Positions 621 through 58,122 of a stretch of 58,122 nt of DNA are shown here, one piece after another. Below the pieces are notes generated by a model. The model was given only the letters and a program-made list of their open reading frames with translations, had not been told where the DNA came from and ran no database searches. The stretch spans positions 1 through 58,122 of IMG/VR virus record IMGVR_UViG_3300024057_000003. One strand, 5' to 3'. Each line of letters opens with the position of its first letter. Position 1 is the first letter of the stretch. This stretch comes from a virus. Taxonomy: Duplodnaviria; Caudoviricetes. Made by a program: the position numbers and the translations under genes.

Positions 621-1460
621 CTAAATGAGGGCCAAAAGGGCTTCGTCCTTCTCGATGCACAGCGCGTTGCGGCCGGCGGCGAGCGCAGCCCTTCCTGTTG
701 ATAGAGATCCTGCGAAACAATCGAGGATCAACTCTCCCGGCATGGTGGCGAAGCGAATCAGCTTGTCGAGCAAGCCGATCGGCTTTTGCGTCGGATGGCG
801 CCGGCGGGAAGCGGGGATCAAGGGGCAGGACAGGACGTCGGTGACCGTGAGATCGCAGGGCTGGCGCTTCTCGCCCTTGGAGAGGAACAGGATCCCCTCG
901 TGGCGTGCGCGGCCGCTGTAGCCCATCCCCATGTGGACCTTGTCCCAGATCCACCGTTTGTTGAACACCAACCCGCATGATTGAAGGAGTTCAATCATCG
1001 CGTCGATGTGAGGCTTGGTCGTCGCCGTCTCGGCCGGGACGAAGATGAAGCAATGCGCGCCCTCCTTGAGCACGCGGTAGATCTCCATCCCCAGCTCCCG
1101 GTCGATGTCCTTGCGCTCGAAATCCCACTGCATCCGGGGCCGTGTGGTGCCGTGGCCGATGTGCCCGTCGATCCAAGGGTAGGGGGGATCTGTCACGATG
1201 GCATCCACCGAGCCGAACGGGATCTCCTTCAGAGCGTGCCACGCATCGTCGCATGCCACGACGCATGTCACGTCGCATGACGCGTTGTACGCCACGTAGA
1301 GCCCGCGACCGACGCGCTGGAACTCCTTGCCCAACCGCTCGTAGATCCGGGCGCGGATGCTGTGCTCGTGCTCGTCAGGGAGCGCGGCGTAGAGGTCTTG
1401 AACGTGGACGGGCTTCTCTCGCCCGCGAAAGAAAGTCCGGATCGCATCAATCAGAGTCAT
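621..1460 (-). CDS. site-specific DNA methyltransferase (N6-adenine/N4-cytosine, beta class) with N-terminal winged-helix-like extension
   Basis: Catalytic VTDPPY precedes HPTQKP and SAM-binding ILDCFAGSLSTG (beta-class order); probable start MTLIDAI at 1460. Confidence 0.9.
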   Translation of the reverse strand: MTLIDAIRTFFRGREKPVHVQDLYAALPDEHEHSIRARIYERLGKEFQRVGRGLYVAYNASCDVTCVVACDDAWHALKEIPFGSVDAIVTDPPYPWIDGHIGHGTTRPRMQWDFERKDIDRELGMEIYRVLKEGAHCFIFVPAETATTKPHIDAMIELLQSCGLVFNKRWIWDKVHMGMGYSGRARHEGILFLSKGEKRQPCDLTVTDVLSCPLIPASRRRHPTQKPIGLLDKLIRFATMPGELILDCFAGSLSTGRAALAAGRNALCIEKDEALLALI

Positions 1461-1839
1461 CGCCGGTAATCCTCTTCTCATCCTTGATCTCTTCTTCGTA
1501 GTGCATGTTGGCCCGGCCAAACACGTCGTCGATCCAGTCGAGACCCTCGAAATCCGCGAGGTGCATCATGTCGCACAGAAGGTCGGAGAGCTTCATCTCT
1601 ATGTCCTCGCGGCCCAGTCCCGTACGTTGGGCGAAGGTGTCGACGGCGACCTGCGCGAAGGCGGCGCGATCGCAGTTCATGATGTCCATCGGGATGCGGT
1701 CAGCGATGATCTTTTCGAGCCGTTCGTCGCCGTCGATCTGAACGTACTTTGTGCCGCCGCAGGGGCAGTTGAAGAAGCTCTCGACGCCGCTCCCCGATCT
1801 GGGATGCAACGCGTCTTCTTTCCAGCGATGTTCATGCAT
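1447..1839 (-). CDS. hypothetical phage protein
   Basis: ATG at 1839 with AAGGAGA RBS; C-terminal LSDLLCDMMHLAD..ANMHYEEE motif seen in small phage proteins; overlaps neighbours. Confidence 0.7.
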   Translation of the reverse strand: MHEHRWKEDALHPRSGSGVESFFNCPCGGTKYVQIDGDERLEKIIADRIPMDIMNCDRAAFAQVAVDTFAQRTGLGREDIEMKLSDLLCDMMHLADFEGLDWIDDVFGRANMHYEEEIKDEKRITGDDSD

Positions 1840-2967: not shown

Positions 2968-3275
2968 CCTCGGCCCTCCTTGATGGCGTTCCGCGTCTCC
3001 TCCGTCGCGCCAGCCAAGCACGCGTCGTAGGCCTTCGAGTAGCTGGGCGCAATTGTCGACATCGGAGTCCCAGCCCCGGAGAGGTGCGCGATCTGCTCGG
3101 CGAAGAGGCGGCAGATCGGGTGTTTGTTCCTCCAGTCGGATCCGTGGCCCTCCTCACGGCCTTGGTCGCAGATCCGCTGCATGATCTCGGCGAAGCTGAA
3201 GACCACCCCGGACAGATTGCACGCGCTCTGGGCTTGCAGGGCTTTGTCGTAATCATCGGGCTTGATGTGACCCAT
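2964..3275 (-). CDS. hypothetical protein
   Basis: 103-aa ORF with GGAGGT RBS; ALQAQSACNLSGVV...NKHPICRLFAEQIAHL. Confidence 0.75.
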   Translation of the reverse strand: MGHIKPDDYDKALQAQSACNLSGVVFSFAEIMQRICDQGREEGHGSDWRNKHPICRLFAEQIAHLSGAGTPMSTIAPSYSKAYDACLAGATEETRNAIKEGRG

Positions 3276-3364
3276 CTTGACCTCCAGAAAAAGTAGCCTG
3301 TGGTGGTGGATGTGGTAGACTGATTGGTGCCGGCCAGAAGAAATACTGGCCCCAGAGAGAGGAG

Positions 3365-3403
3365 AGCCTGGAGCGTTCTCGTGGACCTCCAGGCTTCTTT
3401 ATT
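3365..3403. terminator. hairpin, probable intrinsic terminator (U-tract on + strand; directly after stop of 3399..3620 on - strand)
   Basis: AGCCTGGAG...CTCCAGGCT stem followed by TCTTTATT. Confidence 0.5.
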
Positions 3404-3620
3404 TCCTCGCCGGTTTGACTGTCCCGTCGATCACGTACTCGACCCTGATCTTCCTCATCGCCGGGTCGATCTTCTCGTCGAGGATCCGCTGGATCCGCCT
3501 TGCGCGGTCGGGGGTGCAGTAGCCGCCGTTCTGCTTCTCGATTAGGTCGACCATGATCTCCGTGAGTTCCTGCTCATTGAGCCGCAGCGTCGCCTTCGGC
3601 GGTTGCTTCTGACGTGCCAT
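3399..3620 (-). CDS. hypothetical protein
   Basis: 73-aa ORF with AAGGAAGG RBS. Confidence 0.6.
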   Translation of the reverse strand: MARQKQPPKATLRLNEQELTEIMVDLIEKQNGGYCTPDRARRIQRILDEKIDPAMRKIRVEYVIDGTVKPARK

Positions 3621-3891
3621 CGAGCGCCTTCCTTTCGCGCTTCGCCTTCCTGCGCTCCACCAGCCGCTTGTACCTTACCATGTTGTCCACGGCTCTGGAG
3701 GAGTTCCGGATCGCCCGCTTCTGGTTGGTCGTGACCGCCCGGTTGAGCTCCATCCAGGCGATCACGCCTTCGAGGGAATCCAGCCACTTCACGTTGAAGT
3801 CGAGGGCGTGATCATTCGCCTTCTTGACCGTGCGGCGGGCCAGGGACAGGTAGCGCTTGAACTGCTTATCCTTTACGGCGCCGCGCCGCAC
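3574..3891 (-). CDS. hypothetical basic protein
   Basis: 105-aa ORF, GTG start with AAGGGAG RBS, overlaps neighbours. Confidence 0.55.
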   Translation of the reverse strand: MRRGAVKDKQFKRYLSLARRTVKKANDHALDFNVKWLDSLEGVIAWMELNRAVTTNQKRAIRNSSRAVDNMVRYKRLVERRKAKRERKALDGTSEATAEGDAAAQ

Positions 3892-4141
3892 GTGCCGCTC
3901 CCTTCTTCAAGGCGATGTCGCGGGCGAGCTGGAGCCGGGCGGTGAGGACGCCGTCGAAGAGTTCGGTCAGCGCTGCTTCGTCGAGACGAATCTCAAGATG
4001 CGTGGTGTCGGTGATGAGGTTCAAAGCAACGCAACGCGGTTCCGCGTCGTCGTCTATTGCGATCATCACCGCGTCCCGGATCCTCTTCTGTCCTCGGAGA
4101 TCGACCGGGATGTACGCCTTTCCACGTGGTGGTTCTGCCAT
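3866..4141 (-). CDS. hypothetical protein (first gene of leftward unit)
   Basis: 91-aa ORF, ATG with GGAGG RBS. Confidence 0.7.
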   Translation of the reverse strand: MAEPPRGKAYIPVDLRGQKRIRDAVMIAIDDDAEPRCVALNLITDTTHLEIRLDEAALTELFDGVLTARLQLARDIALKKGAARAARRRKG

Positions 4142-4174
4142 CGTTCCTCCGTATAAAAAGGGGGTTCTACCAAC

Positions 4175-4200
4175 CTTGTACCATGAATCTAAGATGACAA
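4175..4200 (-). promoter_or_regulatory. putative phage early promoter TTGTCA-N14-TACAAG (GGTACAAG core)
   Basis: Same architecture as 49853..49877 upstream of the other leftward unit. Confidence 0.45.
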
Positions 4201-4210
4201 ATCTTTGTCA
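4195..4210. promoter_or_regulatory. perfect inverted repeat TGACAAA-TC-TTTGTCA, operator-like
   Basis: Seen directly, between divergent promoters. Confidence 0.45.
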
Positions 4211-4218
4211 AGATAGGC

Positions 4219-4247
4219 TTGACGGGGAGTGCCGGGGGATGTACTAT
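4219..4247 (+). promoter_or_regulatory. sigma70-type promoter TTGACG-N17-TACTAT
   Basis: Near-consensus hexamers with 17-nt spacer, upstream of the structured RNA. Confidence 0.65.
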
Positions 4248-4253
4248 TCTGGT

Positions 4254-4468
4254 GACCAGGCTCTTTGGGAAACAGAACTACGCGCTCCTTGGCTGGCCGA
4301 TGCAATCGGCGCGGCACCGCAGCGTTTCTGCGGACTCCCGACCCCTTGCGCGCAAGGGACTCCGGGTGGCCAGCCATCGAACCTGAAATTCTGTTTCCCC
4401 CTCTCTCCAGGGCCAGGCCGCCTTTGAAGGTTAACCCCTCGAAGCGGTGGCCTGGCTCCTTTTATTTT
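4254..4468 (+). ncRNA. putative structured non-coding RNA (6S-like architecture, unassigned)
   Basis: GGGAAACAGAA (4267-77) pairs with TTCTGTTTCCC (4389-99); 12x12-nt internal bubble; TGGCTGGCC/GGCCAGCCA stem; apical hairpins; bounded by promoter and terminator; no credible ORF. Confidence 0.55.
4412..4468 (+). terminator. Rho-independent terminator
   Basis: GCCAGGCCGCC...GGTGGCCTGGC stem followed by TCCTTTTATTTT. Confidence 0.75.
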
Positions 4469-4519
4469 AAATCCACTTCGGCTTGCATCTGACCAGTCAC
4501 CTTTACCGCCGTCGGGGGC

Positions 4520-4548
4520 TATACAATTTGGACGACGTGGGGTAGACT
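4520..4548 (+). promoter_or_regulatory. putative phage late promoter TATACA-N17-TAGACT (leaderless start at 4555)
   Basis: Motif repeated at 9082, 13518, 18477; ATG lies 7 nt after -10 and has no SD. Confidence 0.6.
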
Positions 4549-4554
4549 GGAATC

Positions 4555-5421
4555 ATGCCCAACATCGAGACTCAGGTTCAGGACTGGTCGACCGAGGCCG
4601 CGGACGCGTTCCTGAACCGGAAAGTCGCGCTGAACGCCTCGATCCAGAAGATCGCCTCCCGAGAAGGGCTCAATCGCGAGAAGGTCGCCCGCGTCGTCGA
4701 GGAGACGAACAAGGCCGTGTGGCTCAAGATGTTCGACAAGCAGGCCGACAAGTGCTTCACCTTCCCGGTCGCGGAGGTGGACAAGATCCTGTCCTCCGCG
4801 CCAGCCGAGCAGATCAAGGTCGCGATGGCGCGGATCCGCAGGCTGGCGCCGTCGACCGAGAAGACGGCGGCGGAGTTGATCCACGACCGCGCGATCAGGG
4901 GCTCTGGATTGCAGCGCGCACAACGGTTCTACGAGAACGCGATCCTGGCCTCCGAGGTCGTGCGGGAGAAGTCGGCCGTCGAGAGCAGGAAGCTCGTGGA
5001 AACCCAGGCGCACTTCTGCAAAGTCGCCCAGCAAATGGTCCTGGGAGAGGGGTATTCGTTCGGCGAGCTGTGTGAGGCCCTTGCCGCCTACCGGCCCGCC
5101 CACTGGAAGAAGGTCGCCGTGCTCATGAAAGTCGCGGCGACCCACATCGGCGTGAAGTTCAAGCTCCCCGAGGGGATGGAGAAGAAGGCCAACGGGATGG
5201 TCGACCCCGGGGAGCACGACATCGTGTCGCAGGTTTCCGCGTCAGGGATGCCCGTCGAGGTGATCAACGGCTCCCACAAGCTCGTGGTCGCTCTGGACAC
5301 GCTGATCGACCAGACGACGGAGGCCGACAAGGCCAACACGAACACCAAGGGCGCGGACGACACGGTGAAGTTCCTCCGCAGGGAGATCCGCAACTACATC
5401 TCCACGCACCGCGCAGTTTAG
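4555..5421 (+). CDS. head-associated protein with multiple K-x-A motifs
   Basis: 288 aa, first gene of structural block; QKIAS, DKQAD, EKTAA, KKVAV, MKVAA. Confidence 0.75.
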   Translation: MPNIETQVQDWSTEAADAFLNRKVALNASIQKIASREGLNREKVARVVEETNKAVWLKMFDKQADKCFTFPVAEVDKILSSAPAEQIKVAMARIRRLAPSTEKTAAELIHDRAIRGSGLQRAQRFYENAILASEVVREKSAVESRKLVETQAHFCKVAQQMVLGEGYSFGELCEALAAYRPAHWKKVAVLMKVAATHIGVKFKLPEGMEKKANGMVDPGEHDIVSQVSASGMPVEVINGSHKLVVALDTLIDQTTEADKANTNTKGADDTVKFLRREIRNYISTHRAV

Positions 5422-5432
5422 AGGAGACGCTC

Positions 5433-6266
5433 GTGAAGACGCTTCTGGACGAACTGGCGGAACGCCGCGCCACCGCTCTGGTCGCCGCCAGCTTCCGTGA
5501 CGATCGCGTCGCCCGCGAGGATCTCGACAAGGTCGCCGCCGGCAAGGGCGGGAAGGCCGTCGGGCTGGTCTCACGGTTCAAGCGGCTGTTCCAGCCGTCG
5601 GCCGAGAAAGTGCTTGTCCAGGAATCGCGCGGCGCACGGGTGGCGGCCCTTGAGCAGCTCCTCGGGAAGGTTCCCCGGGGGCAATCCAAGATGAAGAAGT
5701 GGCTCAAGGGCGGCCCGCAGTACTCCCGTGTCCAAGAGCCCGAGGTTCGGCAACAGGTCGTGCAGACAGCCAAGGGCAGGCAACGAATCGTTCAGCTCCA
5801 AGGCAACAAGGTCCGGCACCTGAAGCGCGAGAACGAAGCGGTCAAGACGCTCAAGGACATCGCCGACATCGAGAAGTCGCTGATCGCCCCCGAAGGCGTC
5901 AGCAAGGTGAAGGCGGTGATGACGGGGGCCGGCGTCATCGGCATCGGCCTCGGGGCCAAGTCGCTCTACGATCAGCTGCTCCTCCGCAGGAATCTGGCCG
6001 CGATCGAGAAGGACCCGATGATCCCCGCTTCGTTGCGCCCGCGCGCCCGCGAGGTCTTCGGCGTCCTCAAGCGCTACGCGCCGTCCCTGGCCAAGGATCC
6101 AACGGTGTCGAGAGACTTCGCCCGGAACTTGGTGCGCCACGACGCGATCGACCACGCCACCGTCAAGGACCTGATCCACGCCGAGAAGGAAGTTCAGGAT
6201 AGCGTGAAGGGCAAGGCCCAGCTCATTACGCAGGGGACCTCCTTCGTCTCGGGAATGGGAGGGTAG
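5433..6266 (+). CDS. putative internal head protein (DKVA site, Gly-rich hydrophobic helix)
   Basis: 277 aa, GTG with GAGGAG RBS; VMTGAGVIGIGLGA segment. Confidence 0.7.
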   Translation: MKTLLDELAERRATALVAASFRDDRVAREDLDKVAAGKGGKAVGLVSRFKRLFQPSAEKVLVQESRGARVAALEQLLGKVPRGQSKMKKWLKGGPQYSRVQEPEVRQQVVQTAKGRQRIVQLQGNKVRHLKRENEAVKTLKDIADIEKSLIAPEGVSKVKAVMTGAGVIGIGLGAKSLYDQLLLRRNLAAIEKDPMIPASLRPRAREVFGVLKRYAPSLAKDPTVSRDFARNLVRHDAIDHATVKDLIHAEKEVQDSVKGKAQLITQGTSFVSGMGG

Positions 6267-9062
6267 GTGTACAAGCTCCTGCTCCCGCACGTCTTTCCGA
6301 ACGAACCGCCGATCAGGATCGTCAGGAGCGATTTCACCAAGCAGGCGTCCTTCTGCCCTCCGGAAGTCGCCTCCTTCTGCACGGACCTGAAGCCGGAGGA
6401 CGGGTTCACCTATCTCCATTTGAATGCCCTCGGATCTCAGGAGGTTTGGGGATCGAACGTCAACGGGGACGGATTCCCGGAGGAAGGCCTGCTTTTCAAG
6501 GGCGCGTCGCACGGCCTGAAGACCTTCGAGATGTTCGCCCACGTCTACCAGCACCACTGTTTCCCTGCGAGGACGACAGTCCTCATGGCAAATCGCGATC
6601 GGATCCCCATAGAGGACGTTCGGGAAGGTGACATGGTTATGACGCTCGAAGGGGCTCGCCCTGTGACCAAGACGATGCGTCAAGTATACGAGGGGTATGG
6701 TTCCAAGATCACTCTTCGTGGTGAGCAGGAAGATACGATAGCGACTGCCGAGCATCCGATCCTGACATATAAGAAAAATCAAGTTCACTGTGAACATGGA
6801 TATAGTCGCCAAACGCAGGGCACGCACGTCATTAACTGTCGGTCCATCCGGGAGCCGATTGGTCACCCATCCTGGATCCAAGCGTCTGAGCTGGAACCTG
6901 GAGATTACGTTGTTATCCCCCGGCCGAAACACGGGGACGAGCAGGTTGATCCATCCTTTGCAAAGCTCGTTGGGTGGGTCGCTTCAGATGGCTATCTTGG
7001 GAAAAAGGGGATCATTCAATTCTCGATTTCCGAGAAGAGCCGCGAGGACATAAGGTCCATAACATCGTGTCTCGAATCTCAGGGCGTTCGGGTTACTGTG
7101 ACGCCTATTCCAGACACCAAGATCGTAATGTTGAGTGCATGCTCACAATCACTACATGAGCGCCTGTCGCAATATGTGACTGGGGTGCTATCCCGGAAAA
7201 CGCTCACTTGCCGCGTTCTTGAGTGGGATAGACATTCGCTTTTAGATCTTCTCGGGGCTTATATCGATGGGGATGGCCATGTCGCGAGATCTGGTCGTAA
7301 TGCGGGGCAACTTAGAATTCGGTCCAGTTCTCATCAAATGAGGAATGCCCTTGCCGATGTTATCCGGGCGCTTGGCATCCCCGCCACCGTTAATGTTGAC
7401 TGCTCTCCGGGACCTATGAAATCGCCTACTAACGGGAAGACTTACTGGAGTAACGGAAGCGGGTGTGTTGCGGTTGTACCGAATCATACACGTTCTGTTG
7501 CAGTGAACAGCCGAAAGCTCGTCACCCGAAAGACCAAGGGGGCTGTCCGCTCATCTCTACTGCGCGACACATTCCTTGTCAAGGTTACAAATGTCGATCA
7601 AGTCTGGGTTAGCGAAGACGTCTTCAACTTGGAGGTTGACGGACCGCATCATTTTATTGCCAATGAGTTTGTCGCTCACAACTGCAACAAGGACCCGGCG
7701 AAGTCCATGGGGGCAGTGAAGATCGCCGCGTGGAATCCGAAGATGCACCGCGTGGAACTCATCGTGAAGGTGAGCAACAAGCGCGGGAGCGGGCTGATCG
7801 AGAAGGTCGCCTCGGGCGAATACCCGGAGTGGTCGATGGGGTGCAAGGTGCCGTACGACACCTGCTCGATCTGCAAGCACGCGGCGAAGAAGGTCTCGGA
7901 GTACTGCGACCACCTGAAGTATGCGATGAACAAGATCCTCGACGACGGTCGAAAGGTGTTCGCGATCAACGACAAGCCCAAGTTCTTCGACATCAGCGAG
8001 GTCGTGATCGGCGCGGACAAGGTGGCGAAGACGCTCCGAAAGGTCGCCAGCTCCAACCGGCCGTTCTCGTCGGCCGTGCTGGGCCTTCACTATTACGGAG
8101 AGGACGAGGGCCAGTACCCCAAAGTCCCCAAGGGGGTGCGCGAGAAGGTCGCCGCCCAGCCTGGAATGCCGAGTGAGCTGATCGCCGTCGGCGCCGAGAT
8201 CTACCGGAAGGAGCCGGAGCTTGCCCCGTCGGTGATCAAGAAGCTGGCGGCCCTTCCGCTCGCCGAGGCGCTTTCGACCCTGAGCTATACGGGCGTGGTC
8301 CTCCACCCCTCAGAGTTCCAGCGGCTCGCCCTCACCCAAGCGGGCCGGGAGAAGAAGGCTGAGAAGCTGGCGGCGCAGGGCATCGTCTTCCCGAGGATCA
8401 GTGAGGACGACGAAGCCTTGGTCGAGGTGCAGGACGATGGGATGATCCATCCCGACCACGTGTCGGAGCGCGCCTTCAAGATCGCCAGAGCCTACCTGCC
8501 GCACCGCTCGATTCTGGAGCCTTTCCTGGAGGAGCGGGTGGCGCGGCTCCCGAAGATGGCGAACCAGCCTCAGCCGCACAACATCACGTGGATCAAGACG
8601 GGGAGCGCAGGCCTCCTTGAGTTGCTCGGGACGCTCGGCCTGTCGTACTTCCTCTATCGTCGGGGATTCCCCCACGAGGCGAAGGCGTTCGAGTCCATCC
8701 TGGTGAAGAAGCCGTGGCTCGGCCCGATCCTTCTCGGCGGTGCGGCCGGGATGGTCGAACTGTCGAACGCCGCGTTCGGACCGTCGCCGCGTTCAGCCGC
8801 CCGGGAGAAGCTCCGCCAGGCGCACATGAAGGTCGGAGCGGCGTGGAAGACGATCGGCAGCGTGTTGGGGCCGGTCGGCCTGGCCTACCTCGCGGCGGCG
8901 AGCGCGGCGCGGAAGGAACTCACCGGCTACCCGCTGAGCGCGCCGGAGAGGGTGATCCGGCACTACCCCGGCCCCTTGGGGATCCTCGGGGTCTACGGGG
9001 TCCTGAAGGCTCGAAAGGCGTTGGCCGGGAAGGCCGCGCTGAAGGCTCTGGTGAAACGATGA
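6267..9062 (+). CDS. prohead maturation protease (HK97/herpes-type Ser protease) with Zn-finger insert, intein and C-terminal extension
   Basis: N-x-NGDGF, HVYQHH (catalytic His), WSMGC (catalytic Ser), CSIC..CDHL, FFDISEVVIGAD; upstream of scaffold and capsid. Confidence 0.85.
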   Translation: MYKLLLPHVFPNEPPIRIVRSDFTKQASFCPPEVASFCTDLKPEDGFTYLHLNALGSQEVWGSNVNGDGFPEEGLLFKGASHGLKTFEMFAHVYQHHCFPARTTVLMANRDRIPIEDVREGDMVMTLEGARPVTKTMRQVYEGYGSKITLRGEQEDTIATAEHPILTYKKNQVHCEHGYSRQTQGTHVINCRSIREPIGHPSWIQASELEPGDYVVIPRPKHGDEQVDPSFAKLVGWVASDGYLGKKGIIQFSISEKSREDIRSITSCLESQGVRVTVTPIPDTKIVMLSACSQSLHERLSQYVTGVLSRKTLTCRVLEWDRHSLLDLLGAYIDGDGHVARSGRNAGQLRIRSSSHQMRNALADVIRALGIPATVNVDCSPGPMKSPTNGKTYWSNGSGCVAVVPNHTRSVAVNSRKLVTRKTKGAVRSSLLRDTFLVKVTNVDQVWVSEDVFNLEVDGPHHFIANEFVAHNCNKDPAKSMGAVKIAAWNPKMHRVELIVKVSNKRGSGLIEKVASGEYPEWSMGCKVPYDTCSICKHAAKKVSEYCDHLKYAMNKILDDGRKVFAINDKPKFFDISEVVIGADKVAKTLRKVASSNRPFSSAVLGLHYYGEDEGQYPKVPKGVREKVAAQPGMPSELIAVGAEIYRKEPELAPSVIKKLAALPLAEALSTLSYTGVVLHPSEFQRLALTQAGREKKAEKLAAQGIVFPRISEDDEALVEVQDDGMIHPDHVSERAFKIARAYLPHRSILEPFLEERVARLPKMANQPQPHNITWIKTGSAGLLELLGTLGLSYFLYRRGFPHEAKAFESILVKKPWLGPILLGGAAGMVELSNAAFGPSPRSAAREKLRQAHMKVGAAWKTIGSVLGPVGLAYLAAASAARKELTGYPLSAPERVIRHYPGPLGILGVYGVLKARKALAGKAALKALVKR
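6558..7682 (+). mobile_element. intein (375 aa) with LAGLIDADG homing endonuclease
   Basis: Starts CFPARTTVLMAN, ends VFNLEVDGPHHFIANEFVAHN followed by Cys+1; LVGWVASDGY and LLGAYIDGDG motifs; visibly lower GC than flanks. Confidence 0.95.
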
Positions 9063-9081
9063 TTATTTTTACGATCAGGGC

Positions 9082-9110
9082 TATACGATTTCCTGTTCGT
9101 GGATTAGGAT
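9082..9110 (+). promoter_or_regulatory. putative phage late promoter TATACG-N17-TAGGAT
   Basis: Intergenic; same geometry as 4520, 13518, 18477. Confidence 0.6.
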
Positions 9111-20591: not shown

Positions 20592-22469
20592 ATGGCAATC
20601 GAAACGCTTGAGCGCCCCGACGTACGCGTCTTCCAGGAGTTCGGACCGGAAGCGCCGTCGCTCATCAGGCCGCTTCTCGAAGCCGCAATCGTCGGCCAGG
20701 CATTCCAGGTGGTCACGAAGGCGGCGGCCGGGGAGTACTTCGGCGGGACCGAGACGTTCGCGTACCCCGGGAAGATCCTCGGCGCGGTCATCCAGACCGC
20801 CGAGGTCGAGGTCTTCCTCCAGCAGGGGACCGATGAGTTCGACATCACGACCGCTGCGGGCGTGGTGATCGACGCGACCGACGTCGACCTGCCAGCATCC
20901 CTCATCCCGGTCAAGGACATCGTGGCCCAGAAGCAGGTGGCTTCGACGGTCGCGGGGACGATCCTCACGGATCTCGAAGCCGACTTCGTCACCGCCGGCG
21001 TGAAGCCGGGGGACATCCTCAACTTCATCCTGCTCGCGCCGTCCCTGATCGAGCCGGATTCGGTGATCTCGACCCAGAGCGGGGACTTCACCGTCCTCAA
21101 CGTCAACAGCGCCACGGAGCTGGAGATCACCCCGGTCCTGATCGCCGAGACCAAGGTCGAGTACGTGATCGTCCGCAAGGGGACGTCCTCGGGCGACGTG
21201 AAGATCACCTACCGCGCGCTCCGGAAGGACCTCGTCGGGCAACTGATCGAGGTGCAGGACCAGAACGACCGCGAGACCCAGCTCGGCCCCGCGGATCCGC
21301 TGAAGAACCCCCTGTCGTTCGGCGTCTTCATGGCACTCCTCCACACCGAGGCCGTCGTGGCGGCGACCGCGGTGGAGAGCGACGCCCTGACCGACTGGAC
21401 GAAGGCCGCGGAGTTCCTGGAGTCCAAGGAGATCTACGCGATCGCTCCGCTCACGCACCGGCCCGACGTGCATCAGATGTTCCAGCAACACGTCGACCAG
21501 ATGTCTGAGCCGTCGAACAAGAAGGAACGGATCGTCCTGGTCAACCCGGAGATCCTCGACAAGGTCATCTACCAAGCGCTGTTGGCCACCGGGTCGGTGA
21601 CGATCTCGTCCGACACCTTCACGGACACGGGCGCTGCGTTCCAGACCAACGGCGTGCCCATCGGCGCGCGGCTGAAGTTCCCGACGCCCGTGTCGATCGG
21701 CGGCGGCCCCGTCTCGGAGGTTGCGATCGCGGCCGTCCTGTCGGAGACGACGGTCAAGATGATCGCGACGGCCGACGCCACGGTGGGCTCGATCAGCTAC
21801 ACCGTCGAGAGCCCGGACTTCACGCTCCTCCAGAAGGCCCTGAACATCAAGGGCATCGGCGAGAGCTTCAAGGATCGCCGTGTCACGATGATCGTCCCGG
21901 ACATCGCGGTCGTCGCCGACAACGGCTCGGAAGTGGACGTCCCGGGGTACTTCCTCGGCGCGGCCGAGGCGGGCCTGATCTCCGGGTCCAGCCCGTCGCA
22001 GGGCTTCACGAACTTCCCGTTCGCGGGGGTCCTGGCGCTCAAGAACTCGAACTTCACGTTCAACGAGCTTCAGCTCGGCGTGATGGCGGCCGGCGGCGGC
22101 CACATCTTCCTCCAGGAGACGCTGGGCGGGGCGGTCACCGTCCGGCACCAGCTCACGACGGACGTGTCGTCCGTCCAGCGCCGCGAGCAGTCGATCGTCA
22201 GGACGATCGATTTCATGGCCAAGTTCCTGCGGAACCGGATCCGCCGGCTGATCGGGATCAACAACATCACGGACACGTTCCTGAACAACGTGCTCCGGCC
22301 GCAGACCAACGGGATCATCGAGGACCTCGTCGAGGACAGGATCATCGGCAGGAACACGAAGATCACCCGACTCGTGCAGGATCCGGTCCAGAAGGACCGG
22401 GTGGTCATCGACATCACGGTGGAAGTCCTGTTCCCGGCCAACTTCATCGACTACACTCTGATCATCTAG
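20592..22469 (+). CDS. contractile tail sheath protein
   Basis: 625 aa; N-term RPDVRVFQEF, HVDQMS..KKERI, VRHQLTTD, C-term DRVVIDITVEVLFPANFIDYTLII. Confidence 0.9.
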   Translation: MAIETLERPDVRVFQEFGPEAPSLIRPLLEAAIVGQAFQVVTKAAAGEYFGGTETFAYPGKILGAVIQTAEVEVFLQQGTDEFDITTAAGVVIDATDVDLPASLIPVKDIVAQKQVASTVAGTILTDLEADFVTAGVKPGDILNFILLAPSLIEPDSVISTQSGDFTVLNVNSATELEITPVLIAETKVEYVIVRKGTSSGDVKITYRALRKDLVGQLIEVQDQNDRETQLGPADPLKNPLSFGVFMALLHTEAVVAATAVESDALTDWTKAAEFLESKEIYAIAPLTHRPDVHQMFQQHVDQMSEPSNKKERIVLVNPEILDKVIYQALLATGSVTISSDTFTDTGAAFQTNGVPIGARLKFPTPVSIGGGPVSEVAIAAVLSETTVKMIATADATVGSISYTVESPDFTLLQKALNIKGIGESFKDRRVTMIVPDIAVVADNGSEVDVPGYFLGAAEAGLISGSSPSQGFTNFPFAGVLALKNSNFTFNELQLGVMAAGGGHIFLQETLGGAVTVRHQLTTDVSSVQRREQSIVRTIDFMAKFLRNRIRRLIGINNITDTFLNNVLRPQTNGIIEDLVEDRIIGRNTKITRLVQDPVQKDRVVIDITVEVLFPANFIDYTLII

Positions 22470-33320: not shown

Positions 33321-33802
33321 CGAAGGACCTCTCGATCACCCAGCTCCAGCGGGTTGCCCCGATCGTACGGGACGGCTCGCTTCGGCAGGATCGTTTTATC
33401 GTCCTGCGCCAGATGGGGCAATCCCCGAAGGCCGTCACGGGGGTCCACAAGCTGGCCCAGTTTGTGACGAAGTTGCTCCTCACCACCCAAGGGTCGGACA
33501 GCTTCGATCCGAACTATGGATCGAGCCTTCTTTTCCAACTGAGAACTCCGAAGGGCCTGACCGAGCTGGCCGACATTCAATCCAACATCAACATCCACAT
33601 CAGAGACGTGAAACGCCAGATCATCCGGAGTCAGGTGAATTCAAGGCTTCCATCCGACGAGCGGTTGAGGGATCTTCGGATCCAGAGGTTCCTCTTCAAC
33701 GAGAGCTCACTCAAGATGGAGATCGATCTGGCCCTCGTCTCAGAAGCCGGCACTTCCCGCGTCCTCAACCTCAGTGATCTCGTCGTCGGGGAGAACGAGT
33801 AA
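33317..33802 (+). CDS. baseplate wedge subunit (gp25-like)
   Basis: GVHKLAQFVTKLLLTTQGSDSFDPNYGSSL..PSDERL. Confidence 0.8.
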   Translation: MTKDLSITQLQRVAPIVRDGSLRQDRFIVLRQMGQSPKAVTGVHKLAQFVTKLLLTTQGSDSFDPNYGSSLLFQLRTPKGLTELADIQSNINIHIRDVKRQIIRSQVNSRLPSDERLRDLRIQRFLFNESSLKMEIDLALVSEAGTSRVLNLSDLVVGENE

Positions 33803-35364
33803 TGGCTGACAACACAGGAATCTTTCAGTTCCAGAACGCAAAGGAATACGCGAAAGCGAAGATCGCCGAGGTCGATTCCCAGATCGACACGCGCGACAAC
33901 ACGGGCATCGGCGACCTCCTGATCAAGCCGGTCGAAGCCTTCCTCCAGCCCATCTTCGAGGAGGTGAAGCGGATCTCCGAAAACCAGTCGCTTATCGGTG
34001 GCGAAGCGCTGACGGAGACGGACGTCGACGCCCTGATCGCCAACCTCTTCCTCACCCGCCTCCAAGGGGCGAAGGCGCGCGGCACGGTCCGCGTCTTCTT
34101 CTCCGAGGCCGTGGCGGTTACGATTCCGGAGGCATCGGAATTCGTGGATGCCGTCGGCACGAGATTCTTCTCCCTGTCCGAGGTGACGATCACCGCCAAT
34201 CAGATGAGCCTGAACCGGGAGGGAGACTTCTTCTTCGTGGAAACGCTGGTCGAGGCAGAGGAGGTTGGAGAGGCCGGGAACGTCGCGCAGGAGGGCATCG
34301 TTGACTTCGTGAGCGGCCCGAGCAACGTCCTCAAGGTCGACAACCCCGACGATTTTACGGGCGGCACCCCCCGGGAAACGAACACCTCTCTCATCGACCG
34401 GGCGAAGGAGGCGATCACCGTCCGGGACCTTGTGTCCAAGCCGGCGATCAAGACGGTCCTCCGGGACCAAGAGGACTTCGCCTTTATCAAGGACATCCGG
34501 GTCATCGGCTTCGAGGATCCGGAGATGGAGCGGGACTTCCTGGTCGGCGACAACATGCAACTCGGGCTCCTTCCGCCCGTGGACGTGATCGGATCCACGA
34601 CCGGAATCCACATCGGAGGGAAGGTCGACATCTACATCCGCACGGTCGGGATCACGACGGAGACGGTCCTGATCGAGGACCTCAAGGCCACCGTCTTCCT
34701 GCGGCCGAAGGACAAGTTCGATCCCACGGTAGATCCCCCGACCGTCATGTTCGTCCCGCTCACAAAGCGGCCGATCATCGAGATCGTTGCCCTTCAGGAA
34801 GTGGACGCGATCACCGGGGATCCGATTGGATCTCCGCTCGTCGAGGGCTTGGATTTCGACGTGGTGGTTGACAACTTCACGCTCCGGTTCTCGGTCCGCG
34901 ATCGCTTGAAGCTGATCATCCACAACGGCCTGCTCATCGGCGGCAACCTCCAGATGACCTATACCCATTCCAATGACATCGTGCTGGTCCAGAGCTTCGT
35001 GAGCGACGAGGACAAGCAACGGGTGGTGACCGCCGATCTCTTGGTCAAATTCAGCCAGCCTGCCTTCGTGGACTTCACGGTGAGCTTCACGCTCGACGCG
35101 ACCTCGGAGGAGACGGCCGCCACGATCGAGACGAAGATCAACAACTTCATCAACAACCTCGAAGTGGGGGCGCGGCTGGAGGCGTCCGACATCGTGGACC
35201 TGATCTACGACAACGGAGGGACGTTCGTTCAGCTCCCGTTCACGATGACGGTCACGGTCCTGAACGACGATGGCACGAAGTCGGTGCAGACGAGCGAAAA
35301 CACCATTACGATCCCGACGACAGCAGGGTATCTGGCCCGGAATATCACGGTAGTTGAGGTCTAA
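33802..35364 (+). CDS. baseplate wedge J-like protein
   Basis: GIGDLLIKP, RLQGAKARGTVRVFF, VEAEEVGEAGNV, FTGGTPRETN. Confidence 0.85.
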   Translation: MADNTGIFQFQNAKEYAKAKIAEVDSQIDTRDNTGIGDLLIKPVEAFLQPIFEEVKRISENQSLIGGEALTETDVDALIANLFLTRLQGAKARGTVRVFFSEAVAVTIPEASEFVDAVGTRFFSLSEVTITANQMSLNREGDFFFVETLVEAEEVGEAGNVAQEGIVDFVSGPSNVLKVDNPDDFTGGTPRETNTSLIDRAKEAITVRDLVSKPAIKTVLRDQEDFAFIKDIRVIGFEDPEMERDFLVGDNMQLGLLPPVDVIGSTTGIHIGGKVDIYIRTVGITTETVLIEDLKATVFLRPKDKFDPTVDPPTVMFVPLTKRPIIEIVALQEVDAITGDPIGSPLVEGLDFDVVVDNFTLRFSVRDRLKLIIHNGLLIGGNLQMTYTHSNDIVLVQSFVSDEDKQRVVTADLLVKFSQPAFVDFTVSFTLDATSEETAATIETKINNFINNLEVGARLEASDIVDLIYDNGGTFVQLPFTMTVTVLNDDGTKSVQTSENTITIPTTAGYLARNITVVEV

Positions 35365-55321: not shown

Positions 55322-58122
55322 ATGGCCGACCTCTTCGACACCGACGAGCAGTTTGAGAACATCAAGGGGAGTCTGTCCAGAGCGGTCAAGCAGGCCCTCG
55401 CCGTCGAGGGAAAGAAGCATCGCCTGGTCGTCCGCAAGGTCGAGGTGAAGGACACGCTCGACGCCAGCGACATCAAGAGCCAGCTCGACGCGAAGATGAA
55501 CCAGAAGACGTGGGGTGTGCCGCTCCATGCGGATCTGGAACTTCAGGACGTGGCGACCGGAGATACGGTCGATCGCCAGCGGGTCAAGCTCCTGGACATC
55601 CCCAAGCTCACGCCGCGGTATAGCTTCATCGTCAACGGCTCGGAGTTCCAGATCTCCAACCAGCTCCGCCTCAAGCCCGGCGCCTACATCCGCAAGCGCA
55701 GGACCGGAGAGACCGAAGCGTTCGTCAATCTGGAGCGCGGCCGCAACTTCAGGATCGAGCTCCGGCCCAAGAGGGGGCAGGTGATGGCCGAGATCGGTTC
55801 GGCCAACGTGAACGTCTACAGCCTGTTCCACATCCTCGGCCTCAAGGACAAGGAGATCCAGGACACGCTGGGCACGGATCTCCACTCCTCGATCGTCACG
55901 CCGAACGTGGATGTGGACATCCTAAAACTCAACAACTCCCTGTTCCGCGACAAGGAGACGAACGTCGAGAAGGCCCTCGGCAACCTGCGAGCCTACTTCA
56001 AGGAGACGAAGATCAGCCCGGAGACGACGGAGGCGACGCTGGGCCGGAGCTTCACGAGCGTCAATGGAGACATGCTCCTGCGGACTGTGAAGAAGCTCGT
56101 CGCGGTCAACCGAGGAGAAGCCGAACCGGACAACCGCGACGAGGTCCGCTACAAGAAGCTGTTCACCCCCGACGACCTCTTGGAGCAACGCATCTCGAAG
56201 AACGTGCGGCTCATCCAGTCCAGGATCCGCCAGAGGCTCGATTCAGCGACCGAGGTCCGCGATGCCGTTCATCCACCCCAGATCTCGAAGCTTGTCTACG
56301 CCGGCCGTGGCGAGAACGCCGAAGGCAGTTTCTACAACTCCAGCTCGCTGTCGACTAGCCCCGATCAGACCAACCCTGTGGACTTCCTGTCCGGGTTCAC
56401 GAAGGTCACGTACCTCGGCGAGGGCGGGATCCTGGACCGCCACGCGATTACCCTTCCCAGCAGGAACATCAACCCCACCCAGATCGGATTCCTCGATCCC
56501 GTCCATACCCCTGAGAACGCGGATATCGGCGTGGTCAACCACCTTCCGCTCGGGGTCGTCAAGCGGAAGGGGGAGATGAAGACGCGGGTCCAGGACCGCC
56601 AGGGCAAGATGACGCATCTCAGTTCACACGATGCCTTTGGCCAGACGATCGCGTTGCCGGGGGAGATTGACGACAAATGGAAGTCGCTGAAGGCTGAGCG
56701 CGTCACGGCCTACCGCGCCGGCAAGGTCGTTCAGGTGGACCCGAGCGAGGTGACTCATCGGTTCACTGACCCCGCTGACCTTTTCGGGGTGAGCACGAAC
56801 CTCATCCCCTTCATGTCCGCAAACTCCGGTGCCCGCGCAATGATGGGCGCCAAGATGCTTCCCCAAGCCCTTCCGCTTGTGGAGCGTGAGGCTCCTCTGG
56901 TCCAAGCGCGGCTTCGAGGTGATGTCAGCGCGGACCAAGCCGTCGGCTCGGAGTTCTCCCTCCATAGCCCCGTCTCCGGCAAGGTCGTCTCGGCTGAGGA
57001 CGGCGTCTTGAAGATCGAGGATTCTGAGGGGGACGTCCACGACATCCAGTACTACGAGAACTTCCCCCTCAACGGGGACGTGGGGATCACGTCAGAAATC
57101 CTTGTCGCCGCGGGAGACAAGGTGAAGAAGGGCCAGTTGGTCGCCGACACGAACTTCACGCGGGACGGATCGCTGGCCCTCGGCAAGAATCTGAGGGTGG
57201 CATATCTGCCCTACAAAGGTTTAACTTTCGAGGACGGGATCGCGATCAGCGAAACGGCCTCGCGTAAGATGACCTCAGAGCACCTTCACCGCCGCGAGTC
57301 ACCGCGGATCCGCTCGGGGGGCGTGGGGACGATCTACGACCGGAAGAAGTTCAGCGCCTACTACCCCACGGTGTTCGACCGCGAGCAGCTTGAGAAGCTG
57401 GACGATCAGGGCGTCATTCAGGTAGGCCAGACCGTTCGGCCGGGAGATCCGATCATCGCCTACATGCAGGAGAAGCAGATCACCCCCGAGGACGTGGCGA
57501 TGGGCAAGCTGAGGAAGTCCCTCGTCAAGCCGTACAAGAACCGCTCGGTCACTTGGGATCTCGACGACGAAGGCGAGGTGGTCAGGATCTCCAAGACCTC
57601 TGAAGGTCCGATCGTCTGGGTCAAGACGAAGGAGCCGATCCGGATCGGCGACAAGCTCGCCGGCCGTCATGGGAACAAGGGCGTGGTCACCGCGATCGTG
57701 CCGGATCGGGAGATGCCGAAGACCCAAGACGGAGAGCCTGTCGAGATCATCATGGACCCCCACGGGATCCCGTCTCGAATCAACGTAGGCCAGGTCTTCG
57801 AGACCGTGGCCGGGAAGCTCGCGAAGAAATCCAAGCGGCCGTACTTGGTGGACAACTTCACGGACAGATCCTACATTGACGACCTGACGGCCGAGATCAA
57901 GCGGGCGAAGATCACGGACACGGAGACGTTGGTCGACCCAACAACGGAGGAGACGCTGGGTGACGGGCTCGTGGGATACCAGCACATCATGAAACTCCGT
58001 CACCCAGTCCGCACCAAGTTCGCCGGTCGCGGAACGGACAAGTACACGATGGACAACCGTCCGGCCAAGGGCGGGGAAGGATCGGCCCAGAGCCTCGATC
58101 CGCTCAAGATGTTCTCGATGCT
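55322..58122 (+). CDS. rpoB: DNA-directed RNA polymerase beta subunit (phage-encoded; truncated by window end)
   Basis: Open frame from ATG 55322 to window end: IPKLTPRYSFIVNG..QLR..PG, DQTNP..LGEGG, PVHTPE..IG, LIPF..RAMMG, GLTFEDG, GDKLAGRHGNKG, PHGIPSRINVGQ, MKLRH; absent from ORF track. Confidence 0.95.
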   Translation, partial: MADLFDTDEQFENIKGSLSRAVKQALAVEGKKHRLVVRKVEVKDTLDASDIKSQLDAKMNQKTWGVPLHADLELQDVATGDTVDRQRVKLLDIPKLTPRYSFIVNGSEFQISNQLRLKPGAYIRKRRTGETEAFVNLERGRNFRIELRPKRGQVMAEIGSANVNVYSLFHILGLKDKEIQDTLGTDLHSSIVTPNVDVDILKLNNSLFRDKETNVEKALGNLRAYFKETKISPETTEATLGRSFTSVNGDMLLRTVKKLVAVNRGEAEPDNRDEVRYKKLFTPDDLLEQRISKNVRLIQSRIRQRLDSATEVRDAVHPPQISKLVYAGRGENAEGSFYNSSSLSTSPDQTNPVDFLSGFTKVTYLGEGGILDRHAITLPSRNINPTQIGFLDPVHTPENADIGVVNHLPLGVVKRKGEMKTRVQDRQGKMTHLSSHDAFGQTIALPGEIDDKWKSLKAERVTAYRAGKVVQVDPSEVTHRFTDPADLFGVSTNLIPFMSANSGARAMMGAKMLPQALPLVEREAPLVQARLRGDVSADQAVGSEFSLHSPVSGKVVSAEDGVLKIEDSEGDVHDIQYYENFPLNGDVGITSEILVAAGDKVKKGQLVADTNFTRDGSLALGKNLRVAYLPYKGLTFEDGIAISETASRKMTSEHLHRRESPRIRSGGVGTIYDRKKFSAYYPTVFDREQLEKLDDQGVIQVGQTVRPGDPIIAYMQEKQITPEDVAMGKLRKSLVKPYKNRSVTWDLDDEGEVVRISKTSEGPIVWVKTKEPIRIGDKLAGRHGNKGVVTAIVPDREMPKTQDGEPVEIIMDPHGIPSRINVGQVFETVAGKLAKKSKRPYLVDNFTDRSYIDDLTAEIKRAKITDTETLVDPTTEETLGDGLVGYQHIMKLRHPVRTKFAGRGTDKYTMDNRPAKGGEGSAQSLDPLKMFSM

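Follow-up and report, generated by a model that had tools for sequence, protein, structure and literature searches.

What would a small structured element, with its own promoter and its own terminator, do in front of the structural genes of a phage? The question is raised by positions 4219-4468 of a 58,122-base stretch of DNA (the window in what follows), which is one virus record of IMG/VR, estimated to be 28% complete and with a G+C content of ~62%. The element occupies a 413-base gap between a minus-strand gene (3866-4141) and a plus-strand gene (4555-5421). A first-pass annotation, made from the sequence of the window, had taken it for a structured non-coding RNA with a host-type promoter and a central bubble like that of 6S RNA, which a phage with its own RNA polymerase and sigma factor could use to silence the polymerase of its host. 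Comparison with other phages supports the structured RNA with a host-type promoter and a terminator, but not the likeness to 6S RNA. We conclude that 4219-4468 is a predicted small-RNA gene that is real and conserved among phages, and that its predicted functional core is the last ~85 nt of the RNA, consisting of an invariant C/U tract and a terminator hairpin, and not the bubble or the apical hairpins. The same core ends a longer RNA encoded in the chromosomes of the likely hosts. The explanation that we prefer, and to which we give roughly an even chance, is that the phage small RNA (sRNA) is a miniature of the seed-plus-terminator module of this host RNA, most likely acting through the pyrimidine tract.

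The element and its copies in other phages

Inspection of the sequence found every feature that had been listed in the first-pass annotation (Table 1). The sigma-70-type promoter is the single site in a scan of positions 3000-6000, where shuffled sequences gave 0.3 +/- 0.6 sites; transcription is predicted to start at ~4254 and to give an RNA of ~215 nt. The closing stem of 11 bp is also present, and the inverted repeat to which it belongs (4267-4298/4368-4399) ranks among the longest in the window. The strong terminator was called by eye, and our terminator scan missed its hairpin because the 14-pair stem encloses a stretch beyond the scan's loop limit of 3-8 nt. The plus-strand RNA (4255-4470) has a predicted folding energy of -95.2 kcal/mol, compared to -76.8 +/- 5.0 for shuffled sequences (z = -3.67, with none of 200 shuffles as good). 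The minus strand folds better still (z = -5.30), and folding alone does not decide between the strands; the choice of the plus strand rests on the promoter and the T-run and on how the homologous host RNA is oriented. The second half of the tract (4400-4408) is predicted to be mostly open in the window RNA, with unpaired probabilities of 0.4-0.9. ARAGORN found no tRNA or transfer-messenger RNA (tmRNA) in the window, and the element had no blastn match among GenBank phages. Two DNA pieces, X5 and X6, end near 4296 and 4366 and leave the apical part uncovered; nothing is drawn from that.

Seven further phage copies were found, making eight with the window. A scan of IMG/VR with the neighbouring proteins gave no relatives. 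The protein encoded at 4555-5421 has 22 relatives with 39-71% identity, and their alignment retrieved 24 metagenome loci, five of which contain the element. In L012 the element is on the same strand as in the window (nhmmer E = 5e-39), and in L015 (E = 3e-17), L013 (3e-11), L018 (5e-4) and L016 (0.03) it is on the opposite strand relative to the neighbouring gene. An 18-mer common to all of the copies led to two more IMG/VR records, L036 and L037, the second of which belongs to a 236-kb record. A gapped search with the terminator pattern returned these two again and no other, and a gapped closing-stem pattern found nothing in IMG/VR. Ten IMG/VR loci retrieved with the C-terminal part of the head protease have no similarity to the element, and in L011 and L008, which were read, the syntenic slot contains other genes or there is no gap. 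A covariance model of the 3' module (R1, described below) had no match at E < 0.1 in L002-L011, L014 and L017-L035.

Four elements recur in all eight copies, namely a -35/-10 pair, the C/U tract, a purine-rich 5' strand complementary to it and a single terminator hairpin. The promoter is 110-215 nt upstream of the terminator in each of them with no gene in between, and the predicted RNAs are 110-215 nt long. The closing helix is kept throughout, with 94.9% of the alignment cells paired versus 41-64% when the partner strand is slid; for the closing helix and the terminator together the figure is 95.9%, again versus 41-64%. Double changes occur in four cells of this eight-sequence alignment, a number reached in six of 500 shuffles. 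The outer stem of the terminator is invariant, and the inner stem has compensatory changes across the phage and host copies. The 18-mer (4399-4416) is identical in all eight phage copies and in the host RNAs.

The domain inside the closing helix does not behave in this way. L012 can be aligned with the window over the promoter, the 5' arm, the loop region and the terminator, but a few bases replace the equivalent of 4299-4367, the part that holds all of the apical hairpins. The other six copies are 110-142 nt long and have one small hairpin in an unrelated 5' domain and no central bubble. The 12+12 internal loop, which is the proposed 6S-like bubble, is found in the window and L012 alone; it is partly paired in the minimum-energy fold of the window RNA and largely paired in L012. 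Therefore, of the structure first described, the closing helix and the terminator are conserved in relatives, and the rod of closing stem, central bubble and terminal stem that would recall 6S RNA is not.

The position of the element is also informative. In the window, L012, L013, L016 and L018 the RNA is in the same slot, between homologues of the genes at 3866-4141 and 4555-5421; the contig of L015 contains the homologue of 4555-5421 and breaks off on the opposite flank. L013, L015, L016 and L018 have the cassette in inverted orientation, and in the genomes G170 and G171 it occurs in other contexts. No reading frame is conserved across the element, and the frames that overlap it in the window are not kept in one frame in L012. 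The common slot, the inversion, the other contexts and the lack of a shared frame would imply an autonomous RNA gene, and they are not what a 6S-like rod would show. A promoter-like pair and the same terminator in eight of eight copies, together with no conserved frame, are what one expects of a small-RNA gene that stands alone.

A host RNA with the same 3' end

The 18-mer occurs at 48 places in a collection of contigs with one genome per species, where ~17 would be expected by chance (our own estimate from the size of the collection), and 26 of the places are in records titled Planctomycetota or Planctomycetales. Eighteen of the 48 hold the whole module, that is, the tract, the same hairpin and the U-run, and all but one of these 18 are planctomycete-titled. 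In these host records the module terminates a longer non-coding stretch, and a strong, near-consensus sigma-70 promoter (TTGACA-N17-TATACT) is present 334-446 nt upstream in 16 of 19 loci; the predicted host RNA is accordingly 334-446 nt long. In one locus (L056) the RNA lies between a Mrp/NUBPL gene and genes for DUF2203 and NifU proteins. These neighbors are confirmed by Pfam in L056 alone; most of the host loci that were read have, after the RNA, a gene that opens with MGPR..., like the DUF2203 gene of L056. A consensus fold of seven host RNAs has 53 pairs, five of them with compensatory changes, and the 3' domain has a conserved internal loop (GGAUAG) plus compensatory pairs.

The host RNA does not correspond to a family that we could name. 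Rfam 15 returned only tRNAs and chance matches on 18 host loci and on the L056 RNA. It is not a tmRNA, as ARAGORN found none in 24 loci, and both tmRNA and RNase P RNA are located elsewhere in all five of the host genomes. A sponge of the CsrB type was also rejected, because GGA is not enriched in the host RNAs.

The R1 covariance model describes the 3' module. The window was included in its seed alignment, and so its score of 98.3 bits is by construction. R1 finds one high-scoring copy per genome in each of the five host genomes, and in one Planctomycetota GTDB family it detects the module in 19 of 20 genomes. Among 151 genomes sampled across the phylum it is present in three, which include G001 itself and G130, a member of the same family. 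Judged from this distribution, the module-bearing family is likely to be the host of the phage. The module of the window is 88-89% identical to those of four host loci (L050, L058, L056 and L049). The 5' parts of the phage RNAs have no significant similarity to the bodies of the host RNAs (best E = 0.14). The homology thus covers the terminal module and no more, and the phage RNA is not an orthologue of the host RNA but a copy of part of it.

Several other occurrences of the module were observed. A DNA contig, X11, is a host-type copy of the RNA gene. A 60-kb contig from a genome titled Nitrospiraceae (L053) has a bare module at 3128-3435, in a tRNA cluster between tRNA-Met and tRNA-Val, without a promoter and without a 5' partner; this contig may be from a phage and have been binned with a bacterial genome. 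In G163 (contig C194) a diverged second copy, L135 (~3046-3130), ends a protein-coding gene, and both arms of its stem have changed together from G-C to A-U. The 3' ends of mRNAs are thus another place where the module is used. Weaker R1 matches of 30-48 bits occur in L040, L045, L051, L064 and L071, and in three of these (L040, L064 and L071) the C/U tract and the stem's 5' half are retained and the 3' arm differs. They may represent a paralogous RNA in the same genomes.

What the phage RNA may do

The tract is complementary to a purine-rich motif that recurs in the host genomes. To count it, the 15-nt complement of the tract was searched with at most two mismatches and compared to the reversed sequence as a control. 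In five genomes that have the RNA the motif occurs 180 times versus 67 for the control, an enrichment of ~2.7-fold, and the excess is present in each genome (20, 41, 31, 49 and 39 versus 12, 17, 13, 15 and 10). Five planctomycete genomes without the RNA show no enrichment, with 49 versus 60 in total (8, 10, 9, 7 and 15 versus 12, 15, 10, 3 and 20). The motif is not enriched in the window either, where it occurs at three places, one of them the RNA gene itself, with 5.0 expected, and it is absent from the phage gene starts there.

The 17 places outside the RNA genes that have at most one mismatch were read individually. Seven of them are 2-56 nt upstream, in sense, of genes that are supported by Pfam or orthology. 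These genes encode a Ser/Thr kinase (twice), an Lrp/AsnC regulator, a CBM48 protein, a penicillin-binding protein (PBP) transpeptidase, an OmpA-family protein and an Xre-type antitoxin, and in the case of the kinase the motif has the same layout behind a -10 box in two genomes (G002 and G003). A place with two mismatches precedes a Mur-ligase gene. Complementary purine-rich sites are thus present in the translation-initiation regions of several genes; the pairing itself is predicted. One 4-kb stretch (L113, at G004:C221:11500-15700) has five instances of the motif, one before a transpeptidase gene and one before a Mur-ligase gene, and these two genes would suggest that it is a cluster for cell division and cell wall synthesis. 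The overall pattern of the motif is what a seed and its regulon would give.

In the preferred explanation, the housekeeping RNA polymerase of the host would read the ~215-nt gene early in infection, and the intrinsic terminator of the gene would end the RNA. The mini-RNA would be reduced to the C/U tract and the terminator, plus a 5' strand that pairs with some of the tract around a short, dispensable insert, and would present the same 15-nt pyrimidine seed to the partners of the host RNA. These partners would be the purine-rich motifs in the 5' untranslated regions (UTRs) and ribosome-binding sites of host mRNAs, and the phage would thereby take over or override the regulon of the host RNA. 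Of this, the analysis shows the anatomy of the element and its conservation, the homology to the host RNA, the restriction of that RNA to one host family, and how often and where the complementary motif occurs; we infer transcription, its early timing, the base pairing and the direction of the effect. A more far-reaching version, which we offer only tentatively and hold to be somewhat doubtful, is that large phages of one Planctomycetota family captured the module of a core host riboregulator and so seize a regulon marked by the 15-nt purine-rich leader motif. The stripped-down RNA would then be constitutively open in some phages, and the candidate members of the regulon would include the cell-wall and division genes, the Ser/Thr kinase and the Lrp regulator. 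If this is true, a new global regulator, the host RNA, is at work in a phylum from which 6S RNA is not known.

A number of observations weigh against the seed explanation or against parts of it. The whole tract is predicted to be paired in L036, L018 and L016, and so an open seed is not universal; the RNAs of the window, L012 and L037 are predicted to pair only its 5' half and to leave the 3' half open, and in L013 and L015 the 3' half is partly so. In the host, the tract is predicted to be paired in 12 of 14 RNAs by pairing probabilities and in the minimum-energy folds of the nine that were folded. Its partner there is a purine-rich run, near the 5' end in the single-sequence folds and a nearer G-run in the consensus fold. 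The covariation in the closing helix is weak, as nearly all of the changes are on the 5' side and the 3' strand is invariant. Six of the 17 motif places precede unverified frames in G+C-rich DNA and four precede none. The motif also overlaps the ordinary Shine-Dalgarno sequence, and its enrichment could be a ribosome-binding-site habit of the lineage instead of a regulon; because related genomes share such habits, five genomes against five are not an independent test. Phage genes use sites of the GGAG/GGAGA type as well, which leaves selectivity for host mRNAs unsupported. The promoters of both the phage and the host genes are consensus matches. The sequencing runs that contain the stretch include no listed RNA run, and those that align are DNA contigs. 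Finally, a block of identity that reaches the 3' end of the host RNA gene would also resemble an attachment site.

The main rival explanation, which we consider unlikely, is that the tract and the outer terminator stem form a platform for a protein that normally sits on the 334-446-nt host RNA. A mini-RNA that lacks the interior of the host RNA would titrate this protein, or would borrow it for stability. This would explain an invariant tract and outer stem in phages as well as hosts, next to an inner stem and loop that change with compensation, since a helix alone needs less conservation than is seen. The tract is predicted to be paired in 12 of 14 host RNAs and three of eight phage RNAs, as one would expect of a structured platform more than of a free seed, and in L053 the bare module that lies between tRNA genes has no 5' partner at all. 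However, no candidate protein was found, and a protein decoy leaves unexplained why enrichment of the tract's exact complement in 5' UTRs is confined to the genomes that bear the RNA. It is rather improbable that the element is simply a strong host terminator, picked up to separate divergent operons, with a transcript that has no function. The terminator is indeed the best conserved part, and the module has variants at the end of a protein gene (L135) and among tRNA genes (L053). A plain terminator would not need the invariant 20-nt pyrimidine tract ahead of the hairpin, though, nor a promoter of its own 110-215 nt upstream with no gene between, as is found in all eight phage copies.

Some phages integrate into tRNA or tmRNA genes, and one could imagine that the shared block is the recombination core for integration into the host RNA gene and that its RNA-like features are incidental. 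The identity does have a sharp beginning at the tract and extends past the end of the host gene by a few bases, and G170 encodes one tyrosine-integrase-like protein. That gene is at 47 kb in G170, however, and the module is at 187.9 kb, 140 kb away, and there is no integrase family match in the 58-kb window (28% of a genome), including the eight open reading frames (ORFs) that flank the element, or in G171. In the genome G172, a relative that is complete, there are direct terminal repeats and there is no integrase. An attachment site needs neither the upstream promoter nor the 5' strand complementary to the tract, and both are kept in all eight copies. Each of the five host genomes has a single high-scoring copy, and in most of the host loci that were read the RNA is followed by the MGPR... 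gene of the DUF2203 type. The additional copy in G163 is not a junction, as it acts as terminator to a protein gene. The host loci that were read contain no prophage junctions, although a ~200-kb prophage would break these fragmented assemblies. We regard an attachment site as very improbable. The 6S-like trap that was originally proposed, in which the loop would mimic an open promoter and sequester the host holoenzyme once the phage polymerase takes over, can be given hardly any credence. In its favor, the closing stem of the ~215-nt window RNA is followed by a 12+12 internal loop and another stem, and the phage encodes an RNA polymerase beta-type domain, as the first-pass annotation had presumed; the sigma factor presumed along with it was not recovered, as the window has no match to sigma region 2. 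A host that lacks its own 6S RNA would also suit the idea. The 6S model matched nothing in the five host genomes, but this is weak evidence, because the same control finds 6S RNA in only five of 14 genomes known to have it. PMC5673643 reports that 6S RNA was not found in three planctomycetes, namely Thermogutta terrifontis and, citing Wehner et al. 2014, Pirellula staleyi and Rhodopirellula baltica. On the other side, no 6S-family match was obtained at any threshold. Rfam had no match at gathering score in the whole window, 6S included, and with E up to 10 the region 4100-4600 gave three chance-level matches (best E = 6.3), none of them 6S; the best was a Streptomyces sRNA model that aligned to the terminator only. 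The loop is limited to the window and L012, where it is largely paired and where the apical domain is deleted, six of the eight copies are 110-142 nt long and have no central loop, and the conservation is wholly outside of the proposed bubble. As judged from these comparisons, the phage RNA is not 6S-like.

Genomic setting and comparison with known systems

The genes of the window belong mostly to a structural module (Table 1). The intein in the gene for the head-maturation-protease-like protein bears a LAGLIDADG homing-endonuclease domain, and in L012 the two extein parts of the protease align side by side, and so this relative appears to be intein-free. The RNA polymerase beta-type domain is Rpb2 domain 6 (E = 2.8e-56), and a 2133-aa frame of the complete relative G172 contains this domain as well. 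On the plus strand there are two copies of a 10-base motif (4518-4527 and 9080-9089), where 0.27 occurrences are expected, and both are in gaps upstream of structural genes (4555 and 9167). Relatives have similar TATA-rich words ~35 nt ahead of the start of the 4555 homologue. The motif may be a promoter for the phage's own polymerase.

Table 1. Coordinates of the element, its parts and other features; positions refer to the window unless a host locus is named
Feature	Position	Strand	Remarks
Sigma-70-type promoter	4219-4247	+	TTGACG (4219-4224), 17-nt spacer, TACTAT (4242-4247); consensus match
Closing helix, 5' strand	4267-4277	+	pairs with 4389-4399; 11-nt arms
Variable enclosed domain	4278-4388	+	internal loop, stem and apical hairpins; not conserved
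12+12 internal loop	4278-4289/4377-4388	+	
9-bp stem	4290-4298/4368-4376	+	
Three apical hairpins	within 4299-4367	+	
C/U-rich tract	4389-4408	+	5' half doubles as 3' strand of the closing helix
Proposed 15-nt seed	4397-4411	+	complementary to the recurrent host 5'-UTR/ribosome-binding-site motif
Predicted intrinsic terminator	4409-4468	+	long G+C hairpin 4409-4459, T-run 4460-4468
Module common to phage and host chromosomal RNA	4383-4465	+	covariance model R1
N6/N4 DNA methyltransferase gene	621-1520	-	within leftward block
Left flanking gene	3866-4141	-	91 aa, no family match; bounds the intergenic slot
Right flanking gene	4555-5421	+	288 aa, no family match; first gene of head-protease/structural block
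Head-protease-like gene, interrupted by an intein	6267-9062		
Tail-sheath-like gene	20592-22469		
Baseplate J gene	33802-35364		
RNA polymerase beta-type domain	57101-58051		within large ORF 55322-58120, which runs off the window end
Host RNA, examples	L056:4001-4371; L050:4332-4710; L084:4442-4807; L043:1290-1721; others	-	promoter and terminator

To our knowledge, the RNA biology of the Planctomycetota is almost unexplored. The module described here exposes an RNA family that is absent from Rfam 15 and present in 19 of 20 genomes of one family, and its 15-nt motif points to a candidate regulon. It also provides a sequence-based assignment to a host, one Planctomycetota family, for uncultured phages of ~200 kb. 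Our literature search found no described planctomycete RNA of this sort and no phage-encoded 6S-like RNA.

Of the known systems, 6S RNA (RF00013) resembles the phage RNA in its size (~200 nt), in being non-coding and in having a closing helix plus an internal loop, and it would have a plausible use for a phage with its own RNA polymerase. It differs in that its covariance model has no match here, in that the loop and apical stem of the phage RNA are not conserved among the eight homologues, and in that the part which is conserved, the pyrimidine tract and the terminator, is not what defines 6S RNA.

A likeness is also found among the C-rich sRNAs that pair with G-rich ribosome-binding sites, such as RsaE/RoxS and the Rsa family; PMC2790875 and PMC6158497 deal with this class. 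Its members are short, terminator-ended RNAs whose most conserved element is a pyrimidine-rich tract, and the tract is complementary to purine-rich translation-initiation regions. However, they have no sequence or model relationship to the phage RNA, whose tract abuts the terminator directly and is partly held in the closing helix. The present RNAs belong to Planctomycetota and their phages, and their pairing is predicted.

Phage-encoded small RNAs are already known. Those called anti-sRNAs in E. coli reportedly mimic the targets of a host sRNA and so act as a sponge for it. The bacteriophage-encoded anti-sRNAs of pathogenic E. coli (PMC4104026) resemble the present case as phage-borne sRNAs that act on the host sRNA network by sequence mimicry. 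The phage RNA studied here differs in copying the seed-plus-terminator module of the host RNA itself, and it is carried by large, apparently lytic phages and not by prophages.

Copies or mimics of structured host RNAs are carried by other phages, including tRNA, tmRNA, Y RNA, pseudo-ToxI and RNA anti-CRISPRs. A virus with a truncated copy of the seed and terminator of a host regulatory RNA is, as far as we know, unusual, and a narrow literature search gave no such case. With such copies and mimics, as presumably in the present case, the virus exploits the host factors by which the RNA, copied in whole or in part, is recognized. What sets the present phages apart is that the RNA they copy is a previously undescribed one, restricted to a single family, and that they have taken only its terminal ~85 nt.

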